Of a stretch of DNA of 16,645 nt, positions 6,674 to 16,645 are shown piece after piece (position 1 is the first letter of the stretch; each line of letters opens with the position of its first letter). The notes under the pieces were generated by a model. It saw only the letters and a list, made by a program, of their open reading frames with translations, ran no database searches and was not told the origin of the DNA. Source of the stretch: Escherichia coli (GTDB taxonomy: Bacteria > Pseudomonadota > Gammaproteobacteria > Enterobacterales > Enterobacteriaceae); assembly GCF_003334355.1 (NCBI RefSeq), contig NZ_QOWP01000049.1; one strand, written 5' to 3'. The translations under genes were made by a program, and so were the position numbers.

Positions 6674-7774
6674 GTGATAATCATAAGATATCTGGTGCGG
6701 GAGACGCTCAAAAGCCAGCTGGCGATACTCTTCATCTTGCTTTTGATCTTCTTCTGTCAAAAGTTAGTGAGGATCCTCGGCGCAGCGGTTGACGGCGATA
6801 TTCCGGCGAATCTGGTGCTCTCCCTTCTCGGGTTGGGCGTGCCGGAAATGGCGCAGCTTATCCTGCCATTAAGCCTGTTCCTCGGGCTGCTGATGACGCT
6901 GGGCAAACTGTATACCGAAAGTGAAATTACGGTAATGCATGCCTGCGGCCTGAGCAAAGCGGTTCTGGTGAAAGCGGCAATGATCCTTGCGGTATTCACG
7001 GCAATCGTCGCGGCGGTTAACGTGATGTGGGCGGGACCGTGGTCATCGCGTCATCAGGATGAAGTGTTAGCAGAAGCGAAAGCGAACCCTGGCATGGCGG
7101 CGCTGGCGCAAGGGCAATTCCAGCAAGCGACTAATGGCAGCTCGGTGCTGTTCATCGAAAGCGTTGACGGCAGCGATTTCAAAGATGTGTTCCTCGCACA
7201 AATTCGACCAAAAGGTAATGCACGTCCTTCTGTGGTGGTGGCCGATTCCGGACATTTAACCCAGCTGCGCGACGGCTCCCAGGTCGTCACTCTCAACCAG
7301 GGAACGCGCTTCGAAGGCACTGCACTGTTACGTGATTTCCGCATTACGGATTTCCAGGATTATCAGGCGATCATTGGTCACCAGGCGGTGGCGCTCGACC
7401 CGAACGATACCGACCAGATGGACATGCGCACATTGTGGAACACTGACACCGATCGTGCTCGCGCAGAACTGAACTGGCGTATCACGTTGGTATTCACCGT
7501 GTTTATGATGGCACTTATGGTCGTACCGCTGAGCGTGGTTAACCCACGTCAGGGACGCGTACTGTCGATGCTGCCAGCCATGCTGCTGTATCTACTTTTC
7601 TTCCTGATCCAGACCTCCCTGAAATCGAACGGCGGTAAAGGTAAGCTGGACCCGACGCTGTGGATGTGGACCGTTAACCTGATTTATCTGGCTTTGGCGA
7701 TTGTTCTCAACCTTTGGGACACCGTGCCGGTCCGCCGCCTGCGCGCCAGTTTTTCGCGTAAAGGAGCGGTGTGA
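6674..7774 (+). CDS. lptF: LPS export ABC transporter permease LptF, 366 aa (GTG start)
   Basis: Begins MIIIRYLVRETLKSQ from GTG at 6674; multi-TM protein; matches E. coli LptF (YjgP) from memory. Confidence 0.93.
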   Translation: MIIIRYLVRETLKSQLAILFILLLIFFCQKLVRILGAAVDGDIPANLVLSLLGLGVPEMAQLILPLSLFLGLLMTLGKLYTESEITVMHACGLSKAVLVKAAMILAVFTAIVAAVNVMWAGPWSSRHQDEVLAEAKANPGMAALAQGQFQQATNGSSVLFIESVDGSDFKDVFLAQIRPKGNARPSVVVADSGHLTQLRDGSQVVTLNQGTRFEGTALLRDFRITDFQDYQAIIGHQAVALDPNDTDQMDMRTLWNTDTDRARAELNWRITLVFTVFMMALMVVPLSVVNPRQGRVLSMLPAMLLYLLFFLIQTSLKSNGGKGKLDPTLWMWTVNLIYLALAIVLNLWDTVPVRRLRASFSRKGAV

Positions 7775-11862: not shown

Positions 11863-11947
11863 GCCGAAGTGGCGAAATCGGTAGACGCAGTTGATTCAAA
11901 ATCAACCGTAGAAATACGTGCCGGTTCGAGTCCGGCCTTCGGCACCA
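11863..11947 (+). tRNA. leuX: tRNA-Leu (anticodon CAA), 85 nt, type II tRNA with long variable arm, encoded CCA
   Basis: Acceptor stem GCCGAAG/CTTCGGC, anticodon loop TTCAAAA, T-loop GGTTCGAGTCC, 3' ACCA. Confidence 0.95.
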
Positions 11948-12133: not shown

Positions 12134-13399
12134 ATGGCATTAACAGATATCAAAGTCAGAACAGCCAAGCCAACAGATAAGCAATATAAGCTGACTGATG
12201 GTGGCGGTATGCATCTGCTTGTCCATCCAAATGGTTCTAAGTACTGGCGTTTGCAGTACCGTTATGAGGGAAAGCAAAAGATGTTGGCACTTGGGGTTTA
12301 TCCTGAAATCACACTAGCGGATGCCAGAGTACGCCGTGACGAGGCGCGTAAGCTGCTTGCGAATGGAGTCGATCCGGGAGACAAAAAGAAAAATGATAAG
12401 GTTGAACAGAGTAAAGCACGAACCTTTAAAGAAGTCGCGATCGAGTGGCATAGCACCAATAAAAAGTGGTCTGAAGATCACGCCCATCGTGTGCTAAAAA
12501 GTCTGGAAGATAATCTTTTTGCAGCGCTTGGTGAACGTAATATCGCTGAGTTAAAAACTCGAGATTTATTAGCACCCATTAAGGCCGTGGAGATCTCTGG
12601 ACGTCTTGAAGTGGCAGCTCGTCTTCAACAGCGCACTACAGCCATCATGCGCTATGCAGTACAAAGTGGGTTAATTGATTATAACCCGGCACAAGAGATG
12701 GCTGGGGCGGTTGCTTCCTGTAATCGACAACATCGTCCGGCGCTTGAATTAAAGCGCATCCCTGAGTTGCTTACAAAAATAGATAGCTATACTGGTAGGC
12801 CGCTAACCCGATGGGCGACAGAACTCACTTTGCTGATCTTTATTCGGTCCAGTGAGCTGCGTTTTGCTCGCTGGTCAGAGATCGATTTCGAAGCGTCTAT
12901 ATGGACTATCCCACCGGAGCGGGAGCCTATTCCTGGAGTGAAGCATTCCCATAGAGGCTCAAAAATGCGTACAACGCATCTAGTGCCTCTTTCAACGCAA
13001 GCCCTTGCAATTTTAAAGCAGATAAAACAGTTTTGTGGGTCTCATGACTTGATATTTATTGGTGATCACGATTCGCACAAGCCTATGAGTGAAAATACGG
13101 TAAATAGTGCGTTACGGGTCATGGGGTATGATACAAAAGTTGAGGTTTGTGGTCATGGCTTCCGCACAATGGCCTGTAGTTCATTGATCGAATCAGGTTT
13201 GTGGTCTCGTGATGCTGTTGAACGTCAGATGAGCCACATGGAGCGAAATTCAGTGAGGGCCGCGTATATCCATAAAGCAGAACATCTGGAAGAACGGCGA
13301 TTGATGTTGCAATGGTGGGCCGATTTTCTTGATGCGAACCGGGAGAAGGGTATCAGTCCGTTTGAATACGCAAATGTTAACAATCCGCTGAGAAGGTGA
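12134..13399 (+). CDS. P4-type tyrosine recombinase / integrase, 421 aa, apparently intact
   Basis: Full-length ORF immediately 3' of a tRNA gene; GGAGGG RBS 7 nt before the ATG; sequence resembles P4-family integrases from memory; visibly lower GC than the core genes. Confidence 0.9.
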   Translation: MALTDIKVRTAKPTDKQYKLTDGGGMHLLVHPNGSKYWRLQYRYEGKQKMLALGVYPEITLADARVRRDEARKLLANGVDPGDKKKNDKVEQSKARTFKEVAIEWHSTNKKWSEDHAHRVLKSLEDNLFAALGERNIAELKTRDLLAPIKAVEISGRLEVAARLQQRTTAIMRYAVQSGLIDYNPAQEMAGAVASCNRQHRPALELKRIPELLTKIDSYTGRPLTRWATELTLLIFIRSSELRFARWSEIDFEASIWTIPPEREPIPGVKHSHRGSKMRTTHLVPLSTQALAILKQIKQFCGSHDLIFIGDHDSHKPMSENTVNSALRVMGYDTKVEVCGHGFRTMACSSLIESGLWSRDAVERQMSHMERNSVRAAYIHKAEHLEERRLMLQWWADFLDANREKGISPFEYANVNNPLRR

Positions 13400-13420
13400 C
13401 AGAAGGCTATTCACACACAT

Positions 13421-13442
13421 GCTCTTCCCCATGGGGAAGAGC
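13421..13442. other. Perfect 22-bp palindrome downstream of int (terminator or protein-binding site)
   Basis: GCTCTTCCCCATGGGGAAGAGC, 21 nt after the int stop; a T-run (13460-13472) follows about 18 nt later, too far for a textbook terminator. Confidence 0.35.
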
Positions 13443-13618
13443 AACCTGCTCCAATAAATTTCTTTTTTATTCCGGCTGATAGCACCGCAATCACCCGTTC
13501 CCTTTAAATAGCCACTTAGCATTCGGCGTAAAATTTGACAGAGAAGGACTATCTCAGCAGGAGCTTAAAGTGTGGTTTTAGGCATAATGTCAATTGACTC
13601 ACCATTTGGGAATTGTAG

Positions 13619-13951
13619 ATGATTGACATAGTTTCCCAAACGGAAAAATCACTTCCCTTCTTGGAAGAAAATCTGCGAGCACATATAAAATGGAAACAGC
13701 ACGGCGGCCCTTGTGAAATCCCCAATGGCCTGGCGTTTTGCGCAATTCACCATAAAGTCTTTGATAAAGGATCGATTGGTCTGGATGAAAATATGCGGGT
13801 ACTGGTCTCGGATGTGGTAAACGGCGGAGGGATCGTTGAGAGATTATTCTGGGATTTTGACGGGAAAACTATTGCGTTGCCACAGGTGCGTAAAAATTAC
13901 CCTTTTGAGGGGGTTGTGGAGTGGCATCGGAAAGAGGTTTTTAGGGGGTGA
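13619..13951 (+). CDS. Small ORF (110 aa) carrying only an HNH-type nuclease core; probably a 5'-truncated remnant
   Basis: Motif HGG...PNGLAFCAIHHKVFDKG resembles the C-terminal HNH core (NGLxLCxxHHxxFDxG) of larger HNH endonucleases. An in-frame TAG sits immediately before the ATG and the RBS is weak. Confidence 0.4.
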   Translation: MIDIVSQTEKSLPFLEENLRAHIKWKQHGGPCEIPNGLAFCAIHHKVFDKGSIGLDENMRVLVSDVVNGGGIVERLFWDFDGKTIALPQVRKNYPFEGVVEWHRKEVFRG

Positions 13952-14061
13952 GGTTGATAATACCGTGCCCCCATAATATTGCCATCTCTTGCATTGAGAT
14001 ATTAAAAGCTACAAATGTTCTCCCCATTTTTAAATGTAGACATTTATAGCAATATCAAAAC

Positions 14062-15060
14062 TTACTGTTCAGCTTTTTCAACAACAAAACCATTTTGCCG
14101 TACAAACTCAATCAAGAGTTCAATATTAACAATGCCCCATTGATTAGAAATAGCAACAATTTCACCAGAAGGAAGTGTAATCAACGCATCTTCATTAATA
14201 TGATAGCGACTCTTTTGCTTCTCTGGTATCTGATCGACAAGCATAACCGTCCGTTTTTTAAAGTCTTCACTTAACCCATTTATTAAATCATTATAACTTG
14301 CAGGATTAAATTGATTTATCCAATCGCGTAATAATTCAAGCGCTAATTTACGCTTATTAAGTTCTTTATCTTTATATATATACCACGTATAGTCCTTCTC
14401 TTTTTTCTGACTGCTAATTAGCTGCTCATCACGTTTTTCACGAAATTTAACTTGATATTCTTCCAATTCAGGAACCGGTATGATTTGCTCTGCATTGATC
14501 AGAACATCATCATTAAATCTATAAGGCGTCAGACGAACACATCGAATGTCTACCCCCTTATCTCTTAACCAAATCGCAGTGGTAGTCAGTTCCTTGCTAA
14601 AATCCGATGAAGCCAAAACAATTCTGATATCTTTTCCGAAATCAACAAGCTCAGTTTCATCCAGCTCAACAAATTCAAGTATTTTTTCTTTCGCATCGGC
14701 ATCGCAGTTTTGTTTTTTCAAATACGTCTGGAAATATTCACATGCTTTCGCAAAACTCATTGTGGAAATCATCGCTGCATATCGTAGTGCCTGTAACTCC
14801 ATATGCGCACCAGTTTCATCACGTTTTAATTCGATAACCACTAAATTTGCCTGTTTATCGATTGCCAATAAATCAATTCGCCGACGGCTATCTTCCCAGT
14901 CAGAAAACTCTTCGGAAATCACCAGACAATCAGGAGCAATAATATCTATGTTTTTTTTGATTGCTTCCTGTAAATCATAACGTTCCTGTAATCCTTCCAG
15001 AGTAAAGGTCGTTTTTTCTAAAGCATGTAGTTCTTTATTTGCGATATTGTACAGCGCCAC
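14062..15060 (-). CDS. Uncharacterised protein with N-terminal RecB-like PD-(D/E)xK nuclease motif, 332 aa (GTG start)
   Basis: Uninterrupted 332-codon ORF with AGGAAG RBS; very AT-rich. Residues 61-94 RIDLLAIDKQANLVVIELKRDETGAHMELQALRY give D-x(n)-ExK plus QxxxY. The C-terminal ~200 aa has no motif I recognise. Confidence 0.75.
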   Translation of the reverse strand: MALYNIANKELHALEKTTFTLEGLQERYDLQEAIKKNIDIIAPDCLVISEEFSDWEDSRRRIDLLAIDKQANLVVIELKRDETGAHMELQALRYAAMISTMSFAKACEYFQTYLKKQNCDADAKEKILEFVELDETELVDFGKDIRIVLASSDFSKELTTTAIWLRDKGVDIRCVRLTPYRFNDDVLINAEQIIPVPELEEYQVKFREKRDEQLISSQKKEKDYTWYIYKDKELNKRKLALELLRDWINQFNPASYNDLINGLSEDFKKRTVMLVDQIPEKQKSRYHINEDALITLPSGEIVAISNQWGIVNIELLIEFVRQNGFVVEKAEQ

Positions 15061-15353: not shown

Positions 15354-15959
15354 ATGATTAAAAATGACAAGGCATGGGTAGGAGACTTGCTGGGCGGGCC
15401 GCTCATGAGCAGGGAAAGCCGCGTCATTGCCGAACTGTTGCTAACCGATCCCGATGAACAGACATGGCAAGAGCAAATTGTTGGCCACAACATTTTACAA
15501 GCCTCTTCTCCTAACACCGCAAAACGTTACGCGGCAACAATCAGGCTTCGCCTGAACACGCTTGATAAAAGCGCGTGGACATTGATTGCCGAAGGTAGTG
15601 AGCGGGAACGCCAACAACTTCTGTTTGTGGCTCTGACGCTACATTCGCCGGTAGTTAAGGATTTTCTGGCTGAAGTGGTGAACGATCTGCGCAGGCAGTT
15701 CAAGGAAAAGTTGCCTGGCAATAGTTGGAACGAATTTGTTAATAGCCAGGTTCGCCAACATCCGGTACTCGCCAGCTACTCAGATTCATCTATTGCAAAA
15801 ATGGGAAACAATCTGGTGAAGGCGCTTGCTGAAGCGGGTTATGTGGATACGCCCCGCAGACGTAACCTGCAGGCAGTTTACCTTTTACCGGAAACTCAGG
15901 CAGTGTTACAGCGCCTGGGGCAACAGGACTTGATATCTATTCTGGAGGGAAAACGGTGA
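15354..15959 (+). CDS. brxA: BrxA-like protein (DUF1819-type), 201 aa; first gene of a BREX-like cluster
   Basis: ATG at 15354 with AGAGGG RBS; ~200-aa, largely helical-looking protein whose stop overlaps the next start (GTGA). Assignment is from size, coupling and gene order, not from a recognised motif. Confidence 0.55.
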   Translation: MIKNDKAWVGDLLGGPLMSRESRVIAELLLTDPDEQTWQEQIVGHNILQASSPNTAKRYAATIRLRLNTLDKSAWTLIAEGSERERQQLLFVALTLHSPVVKDFLAEVVNDLRRQFKEKLPGNSWNEFVNSQVRQHPVLASYSDSSIAKMGNNLVKALAEAGYVDTPRRRNLQAVYLLPETQAVLQRLGQQDLISILEGKR

Positions 15960-16558
15960 TAGATCCCGTTCTTGAATATCGCCTGTCTCAAATCCAGAGT
16001 CGCATTAACGAAGATCGCTTCCTCAAAAATAACGGCTCCGGAAATGAAATTGGTTTTTGGATCTTTGATTATCCCGCGCAGTGCGAACTGCAGGTACGGG
16101 AGCATTTGAAGTATCTGCTCCGGCATCTGGAAAAGGACCATAAATTTGCCTGTCTGAATGTCTTCCAAATCATCATCGATATGCTCAATGAACGCGGCCT
16201 TTTCGAGCGCGTCTGCCAGCAGGAAGTCAAAGTGGGTACTGAGACGCTGAAAAAGCAGCTTGCTGGTCCGTTAAATCAGAAAAAAATCGCTGATTTTATA
16301 GCGAAAAAAGTCGATCTGGCTGCCCAGGATTTTGTCATCCTTACCGGCATGGGCAACGCCTGGCCATTAGTACGCGGTCATGAACTGATGAGTGCCTTGC
16401 AGGATGTCATGGGGTTCACCCCACTGCTGATGTTTTATCCTGGCACCTACAGCGGGTACAACCTTTCCCCGCTCACAGACACCGGTTCACAAAATTATTA
16501 TCGCGCTTTCAGACTGGTACCAGATACGGGACCCGCAGCAACATTGAATCCTCAATGA
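15956..16558 (+). CDS. brxB: BrxB-like protein (DUF1788-type), 200 aa
   Basis: GTG start at 15956 with GGAGGG RBS, overlapping the upstream stop by 4 nt; ~200 aa; followed by a third co-directional gene. Assignment by architecture. Confidence 0.55.
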   Translation: MIDPVLEYRLSQIQSRINEDRFLKNNGSGNEIGFWIFDYPAQCELQVREHLKYLLRHLEKDHKFACLNVFQIIIDMLNERGLFERVCQQEVKVGTETLKKQLAGPLNQKKIADFIAKKVDLAAQDFVILTGMGNAWPLVRGHELMSALQDVMGFTPLLMFYPGTYSGYNLSPLTDTGSQNYYRAFRLVPDTGPAATLNPQ

Positions 16559-16621
16559 AGAGCATAATGAACCGCCCCGGAAATCCTGGAGACTAAACTC
16601 CCTGAGAAAGAGGTAAACAGG

Positions 16622-16645
16622 ATGACTAAAAATACTCGTTTTTCC
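16622..16645 (+). CDS. 5' end of the third gene of the cluster (MTKNTRFS...), runs off the window; would be brxC (large ATPase) if the BREX assignment holds
   Basis: ATG at 16622 preceded by AAAGAGG RBS, 63 nt after the brxB-like stop; only 8 codons visible. Confidence 0.35.

Follow-up and report, generated by a model that had tools for sequence, protein, structure and literature searches.

The 110-codon open reading frame at 13619-13951 (+ strand, ATG start, from the list of open reading frames) of the Escherichia coli DNA analysed here, a stretch of 16,645 nucleotides which we call the window, is, as judged from its sequence, the 3' remnant of a gene for an EcoWI-like restriction endonuclease. 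The intact protein has 290 residues, binds phosphorothioated DNA and consists of a sulfur-binding domain and an HNH nuclease domain. Very probably the remnant is non-functional and originated by one internal deletion of 635 bp in a module carried by a genomic island; we infer both the single deletion event and the inactivity of the product. The enzyme family is known and characterised (PMC7461809, PMC6224610), and the locus has already been annotated as a pseudogene by RefSeq. It is an ordinary pseudogene.

Gene arrangement of the window

The window runs from valS via idn to ahr, followed by tRNA-Leu(CAA), an integrase gene, the 110-codon frame, a convergent gene for a 332-residue protein, brxA and brxB. 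The tRNA-Leu(CAA) gene, leuX (11863-11947, +; ARAGORN), is the integration site of the island and marks its attL side; it adjoins an identical integrase in E. coli and in Klebsiella-type loci. leuX is a known hypervariable island anchor, which carries BREX in Salmonella (PMC9009780). The P4-type tyrosine integrase of the island (421 residues, 12134-13399, +; from the list of open reading frames) is annotated as tyrosine-type recombinase/integrase. Downstream of it extends a spacer (13400-13666, +) which is non-coding in relatives, is 80-89% identical to the post-integrase spacers of islands at pheU and pheV and contains the ATG of the 110-codon frame (13619). Within the spacer, a perfect 10+10 inverted repeat (GCTCTTCCCC AT GGGGAAGAGC) at 13421-13442 begins 22 nt past the integrase stop codon and is probably the stem of the integrase terminator; it escaped the terminator scan since no T-run directly adjoins it. 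A block of 37 nt at 13547-13583 (+; GACTATCTCAGCAGGAGCTTAAAGTGTGGTTTTAGGC) is identical in the spacers of the window and of the pheV island, although the spacers overall are only about 80% alike. This block could be a promoter/operator or an integrase-related site. An Rfam search of 13350-14100, which covers the block, returned no family match at E up to 1.

The 332-residue protein is encoded convergently with the 110-codon frame (14062-15060, -) and matches the PADLOC candidate defence family PDC-S11 (PDLC04909, E 5.8e-114). It invariably separates the nuclease gene from BREX-1 in about 240 E. coli genomes. Its RefSeq annotation is inconsistent (membrane protein, PDDEXK family nuclease or hypothetical), and in one locus (L022) it was called as two separate genes of 60 and 217 residues. 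The BREX-1 operon starts with brxA (15357-15959) and brxB (15956-16558), which together occupy 15357-16558 (+) and were assigned by the RefSeq annotation of a matching locus (L001) and by Pfam BrxA/BrxB. Nearly all close relatives cease to match the window at 16567, just before the start of brxC (window 16568-16645); a match through to the end of the window was found in a few genomes only, e.g. in the O111:H8 strain 8234. The break suggests a different 5' allele of brxC, i.e. a mosaic BREX operon.

Relationship to EcoWI-like endonucleases

Residues 21-109 of the translated frame aligned with positions 196-284 of the NCBIfam profile NF045808 (PT-DNA_restrict, 284 positions in total) at an E-value of 2.3e-37. 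With 128.7 bits the match, though far beyond chance, stays short of the curated cutoff (180), i.e. the frame does not qualify as a whole-protein member of the family. When an intact 290-residue allele was compared with the window by tblastn, residues 201-290 were retrieved at 93% identity (E 8.6e-55). Residues 1-200 left no trace in any frame anywhere in the 16.6-kb window. Such a translated search for an upstream remnant had been proposed in a preliminary description of this DNA, which had regarded the frame as a decayed gene devoid of its N-terminal domain; the C-terminal part is all that it yielded. In agreement with this view, the homologous part has been given the status of a pseudogene by RefSeq/PGAP ('HNH endonuclease, missing N-terminus'). 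The homologous stretch is limited to residues 201/202-290, corresponding to 13679/13682-13951 of the window. Over this stretch the DNA is 94-95% identical to intact E. coli alleles, as befits descent from this family. Compared with the individual alleles, the remnant is 93-94% identical to those of the E. coli type and 76-80% identical to those named as Klebsiella.

The intact allele of E. coli MIN10 has 290 residues, of which 5-142 match the sulfur-binding domain of ScoMcrA (5ZMO). This N-terminal domain (PF26340; ScoMcrA fold) is absent from the window. The HNH domain is C-terminal in the larger enzyme, as had been anticipated. Pfam HNH_2 (PF13391) matched the intact allele with model positions 1-66 at residues 182-236 (E 4.9e-10). 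On the 110-codon frame the match comprised model positions 39-66 of 66 only (E 0.0019) and was not that of a full domain. The earlier view of the frame as an 'HNH core' thus needs to be amended: HNH sequence is present, yet the core itself is incomplete since the remnant starts at residue 202.

A search with the full-length allele yielded 4396 homologues at E ≤ 1e-10, and the best 120 of these were nearly all 289-293 residues long and carried PF26340 and PF13391. The normal length of the family was taken from this search. The 110-residue query, used in a word-based search, was uninformative on length as it returned fragments only, i.e. short or partial proteins of every length from 63 to 189 residues. 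Because the short matches came in all lengths and the full-length homologues are nearly all of 289-293 residues, there is no conserved family of small genes of about 110 codons. Widespread, conserved stand-alone homologues of this size had been named beforehand as the finding that would speak for a genuine small gene; what was found instead were mostly partial sequences.

Catalytic and zinc-binding residues

The remnant was aligned with TagI (6GHS). H22 corresponds to TagI H229, the first His of the HNH motif, N36 to N245, the Asn, and H45 to H254, the last His. C41 and H44 correspond to C250 and D253, the second half of the zinc site. H22, N36 and H45 occupy columns which are 99-100% conserved in 111 homologues; all three catalytic residues of the HNH motif are therefore retained. 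The residues enumerated in the preliminary description (H28-G29-G30, N36, C41 and H44-H45) are all present at these positions of the translation, and its assignment to HNH nucleases was correct. Its choice of H28 as the key His was not: the canonical first His is H22, located in 'AHIKW', and position 28 is variable, with His in 43% of the 111 full-length homologues.

EcoWI homologues possess a zinc finger of the type CxxC + CxxH (PMC7461809). In the remnant, CxxH (C41, H44) is kept and CxxC, C182/C185 of the intact protein, is inside the 635-bp deletion, which leaves the zinc site incomplete. The deleted cysteines align with C210/C213 of TagI, and the respective alanine mutants of TagI are almost inactive (PMC6212794). 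The predicted product of the frame would have no sensor domain and no linker, and it would also miss the first strand region of its nuclease fold as well as one half of the zinc site.

The deletion and its junction

The junction separates 13681 from 13682, and 2 nt of microhomology (GC) are present at 13679-13680. Upstream of it, 15 nt of the own 5'UTR of the nuclease gene have been kept (13667-13681, +; GAAAATCTGCGAGCA). They are identical in 14 of 15 positions to nucleotides 7357-7371 of the locus with the intact MIN10 allele (L002), which are situated 47-33 nt upstream of its ATG. Downstream, a base-by-base comparison showed that the sequence from 13682 onward (CATATAAAATGG…) corresponds to codon 202 onward of the same allele. 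The segment 13682-13951 (+) comprises codons 202-290 and the stop codon and encodes the protein from the catalytic His to the C-terminal tail, including CxxH as one half of the zinc site, as delineated by NF045808, tblastn and DNA identity. In the alignments, DNA homology to intact alleles begins at about 13676-13682. Relative to the intact MIN10 allele 635 bp are missing, namely codons 1-201 and the 32 nt of 5'UTR that directly precede them. The gene has thereby lost its start codon and ribosome-binding region, all of the sulfur-binding domain and, from the zinc site, the CxxC half. In the undeleted ancestor the spacer would adjoin the 5'UTR sequence …TTGGAAGAAAATCTGCGAGCATGATCGC….

The start of the 110-codon frame has a different origin. 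Its ATG does not exist in the spacers of the related pheV islands, which read 'TAACTAATC' where the window has 'TAGATGATT'. From the limits of the homology and the junction it follows that the ATG and the first ~20 codons are spacer and 15 nt of 5'UTR which are read in frame by accident. The frame at 13619-13951 (+) accordingly is a chimera of about 20 fortuitous codons with the remnant, as is evident from the list of open reading frames and the comparison of the junctions. An in-frame TAG directly ahead of the ATG, noted earlier, is indeed present (13616-13618). Having lost its native start, ribosome-binding region and much of its coding sequence in comparison with a family of conserved length, the gene is a pseudogene.

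Island context and distribution

Comparison with related loci that carry the intact gene, as had been recommended, uncovered the same 3' flank: downstream of the intact gene, about 200 complete E. coli genomes encode the same 332-residue PDC-S11 protein and the BREX-1 operon with brxA and brxB. In these genomes the module is oriented oppositely to that in the window and occupies the far end (nanS/fim) of the leuX region. The form present in the window was found in about 36-41 E. coli genomes. Nineteen E. coli genomes have a related integrase at tRNA-Phe, either pheU or pheV, and behind it a similar spacer, the 5'UTR of the nuclease gene with its first ~73 codons, and then unrelated restriction-modification cargo. 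The succession of integrase, spacer and nuclease gene is a natural arrangement because it is present in these 19 pheU/pheV islands; the window has the same minus 635 bp. The 5' stub of the pheU/pheV islands (L009 5192-5411; L010, L011 and L012 7165-7384) is frameshifted, its carriers include ETEC H10407, and the cargo behind it encodes an N6-methylase, an Eco57I-like enzyme and a McrBC-type system. Among 2270 genomes the 3' end of homology varied.

In a public collection, 3762 indexed blocks contain exactly this integrase protein. Among the loci listed for it, all ten have brxA/brxB and a BrxC-family gene downstream, and all ten are at tRNA-Leu(CAA) with the same spacing and a frame of 110 or 112 residues; the gene for the 332-residue protein was called in eight. 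Eight of the ten have non-E. coli flanks (carbonic anhydrase, sulfate transporter, alcohol dehydrogenase) which are of the Klebsiella type. The 112-residue variant occurs in three of these eight and is named Klebsiella pneumoniae in NCBI. The same junction together with an identical integrase in E. coli and Klebsiella-type backbones indicates that the deletion arose once and travels with the island. This disagrees with the earlier suggestion that the truncated gene marks turnover at this particular site. Similarly, the proposal that an older resident gene was truncated upon arrival of the current island content was not supported, as the flanks on both sides are collinear with relatives that are intact or retain the 5' part.

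In strain 2018-06-4CC a 14-nt repeat of the 3' end of leuX was identified 35.5 kb downstream of leuX. The interval encloses the integrase, the remnant, PDC-S11, BREX and CP4-like genes. Outside of this attR-like repeat the strain has a second, non-overlapping stub of the nuclease gene (codons 1-48; L006 21222-21365), which adjoins an intact, divergent gene for a 216-residue HNH protein and a nanS remnant. Within the leuX region examined, 2018-06-4CC consequently has two dead copies and no intact one. The gene of the 216-residue 'HNH endonuclease' (L006 20435-21085; L004 4617-5267) is located at the distal boundary of leuX, where it and the intact nuclease gene are transcribed divergently; in MIN10, PapM-32-1 and WP8-S17-ESBL-05 it is reduced to a stub of 35 codons. 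In PADLOC this protein had weak matches only, to type IV methyl-directed enzymes.

Origin of the remnant

The following sequence of events would account for the data. In the ancestor, an island that targets a tRNA gene would have carried the nuclease gene immediately behind its integrase gene, with PDC-S11 and BREX-1 next in line. A single 635-bp deletion would then have taken away 32 nt at the end of the 5'UTR together with the start codon and the remainder of codons 1-201. By chance, a spacer ATG further upstream would have been in frame with what was left, which created the 110-codon frame. Devoid of the DNA-sensing domain and of half the zinc site, the remnant would since have drifted neutrally, and it may persist because of its position between an integrase and defence genes which are under selection. 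The single internal deletion is deduced from collinearity and not from an observed ancestor, because no undeleted integrase-proximal copy was found. A search of 5426 complete E. coli genomes with the reconstructed intact sequence returned the pheU/pheV 5' stubs only. A conserved 23-mer of the spacer had 0 matches in species-representative genomes, and a 23-mer specific for the junction had 0 matches in JGI metagenomes.

Broken copies of the gene were encountered as a 5' stub behind the integrase (pheU, pheV), as a 3' stub behind the integrase (the window) and as the 48-codon stub at the distal leuX boundary (2018-06-4CC). Because they recur both at the distal leuX boundary and, for three tRNA sites, at the integrase-proximal edges of islands, one may speculate that the EcoWI-like gene is a recurrent recombination anchor at which tRNA-targeting islands and the chromosomal leuX hot spot swap defence cargo. 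The remnant would then be the footprint of an exchange and not of a random deletion. We consider this idea tentative and rather improbable.

Another scenario, which comes closest to the suggestion in the preliminary description and to which we assign a small probability, is that an island equipped with integrase, spacer and a 5' stub, like the present pheU/pheV islands, captured the chromosomal module of nuclease gene, PDC-S11 and BREX by illegitimate recombination at 13681/13682, in which case the gene was cut when the cargo arrived. The 19 genomes with integrase, spacer and 5' stub but no 3' part are such potential recipients. The module is far commoner at the distal (nanS/fim) end of leuX in opposite orientation, hence it must have moved and inverted at some time, and the remnant is of the E. 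coli allele type (see the identities above). The searches for an undeleted integrase-proximal copy, in complete E. coli and species-representative genomes and in JGI metagenomes, likewise accord with a capture. However, 5'UTR and gene body would by chance have had to be joined in line and in one orientation, a coincidence which is not required if the segment was simply deleted. Even so, the remnant would still be incoming cargo and not an older resident of the site, and with the same junction at leuX in another genus it would be no record of turnover at this E. coli locus. We therefore retain the single internal deletion as the preferred explanation.

Decay and selection

The frame is still open in 13 of 13 copies examined, in E. 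coli and Klebsiella-type hosts; these copies with the shared junction are the window, three E. coli loci and nine others. The exact 110-residue protein is recorded on 306 contigs and a P31L variant on 968. One might thus think of a genuine small gene, the product of which would be an HNH nickase of minimal size or would act in a dominant-negative way by poisoning the dimeric full-length EcoWI-like enzymes. The catalytic His, Asn and His and the CxxH pair are kept, and a SprMcrA variant without 87 N-terminal residues is an active, non-specific nickase (PMC7461809), so loss of the sensor alone does not prove inactivity.

The pattern of substitutions argues against this. F40, V47, V66 and V99 of the window are substitutions at columns which are at least 99% conserved in the 111 full-length homologues; P31L and C32F, found in other copies, also change such columns. 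Six sites of the frame vary among the 13 copies (P31L, V47A, V66A, V99F, V99G and TGA→GGA). All six changes are nonsynonymous or stop-loss and none is synonymous. Further variants in the cluster of 131 members are C32F, D79Y and a copy of 92 residues with a divergent, shortened C-terminus. As controls we used the integrase, PDC-S11, brxA and brxB genes. Pooled from pairwise comparisons of three loci (L013, L016, L022) with the window, about 31 synonymous vs 6 nonsynonymous codon changes were counted; the PDC-S11 comparison of L022 was left out because an indel shifts the frame. A rough hypergeometric estimate for 0 of 6 synonymous changes against this control gave p ~1.5e-4. With a small sample of related copies this is strong evidence, but not formal proof, that selection was relaxed after the lesion.

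Other properties of the frame are equally at odds with a small gene. The CxxC pair, which is needed in TagI (PMC6212794), is gone; the N-terminus is spacer, the ATG of which is absent from relatives; and the short homologues of all lengths display no conserved architecture. A scan for consensus promoters produced 3 promoter-like matches vs 2.0 expected from shuffled sequences, nothing above background, and a scan for an own terminator showed nothing above shuffled controls. Altogether, a functional small gene appears very improbable.

Lastly, a large inversion that split one gene into the remnant and the 5' part found at the far end of the leuX region of 2018-06-4CC on the opposite strand was dismissed, as the intervening CP4-like genes show no inversion with respect to the integrase, the two pieces leave a gap between them (codons 1-48 vs 202-290), and the 14-nt repeat of the leuX 3' end between them shows that the distal stub is a separate resident copy outside of the island.

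Comparison with known systems

EcoWI and its homologues are dimeric, cleave next to GpsAAC/GpsTTC, restrict dnd+ plasmids and combine a sulfur-binding region at the N-terminus with an HNH domain at the C-terminus (PMC7461809). Judged by the features described there, the intact alleles resemble them: they have the N-terminal region KPzzLL...PF..L..W, CxxC + CxxH and a mass of ~33 kDa. The last 89-90 residues of the remnant are 93% identical to the intact 290-residue E. coli alleles; it is without CxxC and the first 20 residues of the HNH domain, has neither linker nor sulfur-binding domain, and scores below the family cutoff. The similarity of the intact allele to ScoMcrA, which like SprMcrA is a Streptomyces type IV phosphorothioate-dependent enzyme (5ZMM, 5ZMN, 5ZMO), is that of a distant relation (E about 1e-7). 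ScoMcrA also has an SRA domain, and nothing of its sulfur-binding domain is present in the remnant. SprMcrA-S is a naturally shortened, non-specific nickase with sulfur-binding and HNH domains and without the N-terminal sensor residues (PMC7461809). It lacks 87 residues and keeps the whole HNH domain, whereas in the remnant 201 residues and a portion of the HNH domain are gone and the decay is neutral. The HNH_2-type domain of the SRA-HNH enzyme TagI (6GHS) can be aligned such that each catalytic residue (His, Asn, His) and each zinc ligand has its counterpart; in contrast to the EcoWI-like enzymes the sensor of TagI is an SRA domain, its zinc site is CxxC + CxxD, and CxxC is missing in the remnant.

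Hypervariable BREX islands at leuX of E. coli and Salmonella, such as StySA in S. Typhimurium, share with the window a P4-family integrase at leuX, the BREX cargo and a location in a region of repeated replacement of mobile elements (PMC9009780). The BREX alleles and the island backbone are different. A remnant nuclease gene is not discussed in that paper, and 'HNH' occurs nowhere in it.

In itself the remnant matters little, being a pseudogene of a characterised enzyme family. On more than 1000 contigs, however, the 110-residue frame has been deposited as "HNH endonuclease" or "restriction endonuclease", and it should not be counted as a defence gene. Carriers of the island would gain no phosphorothioate-dependent restriction activity from it, as far as can be predicted from the residues that are left. 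The common junction is a handy marker of single origin with which one BREX-1 island can be traced between E. coli and Klebsiella.
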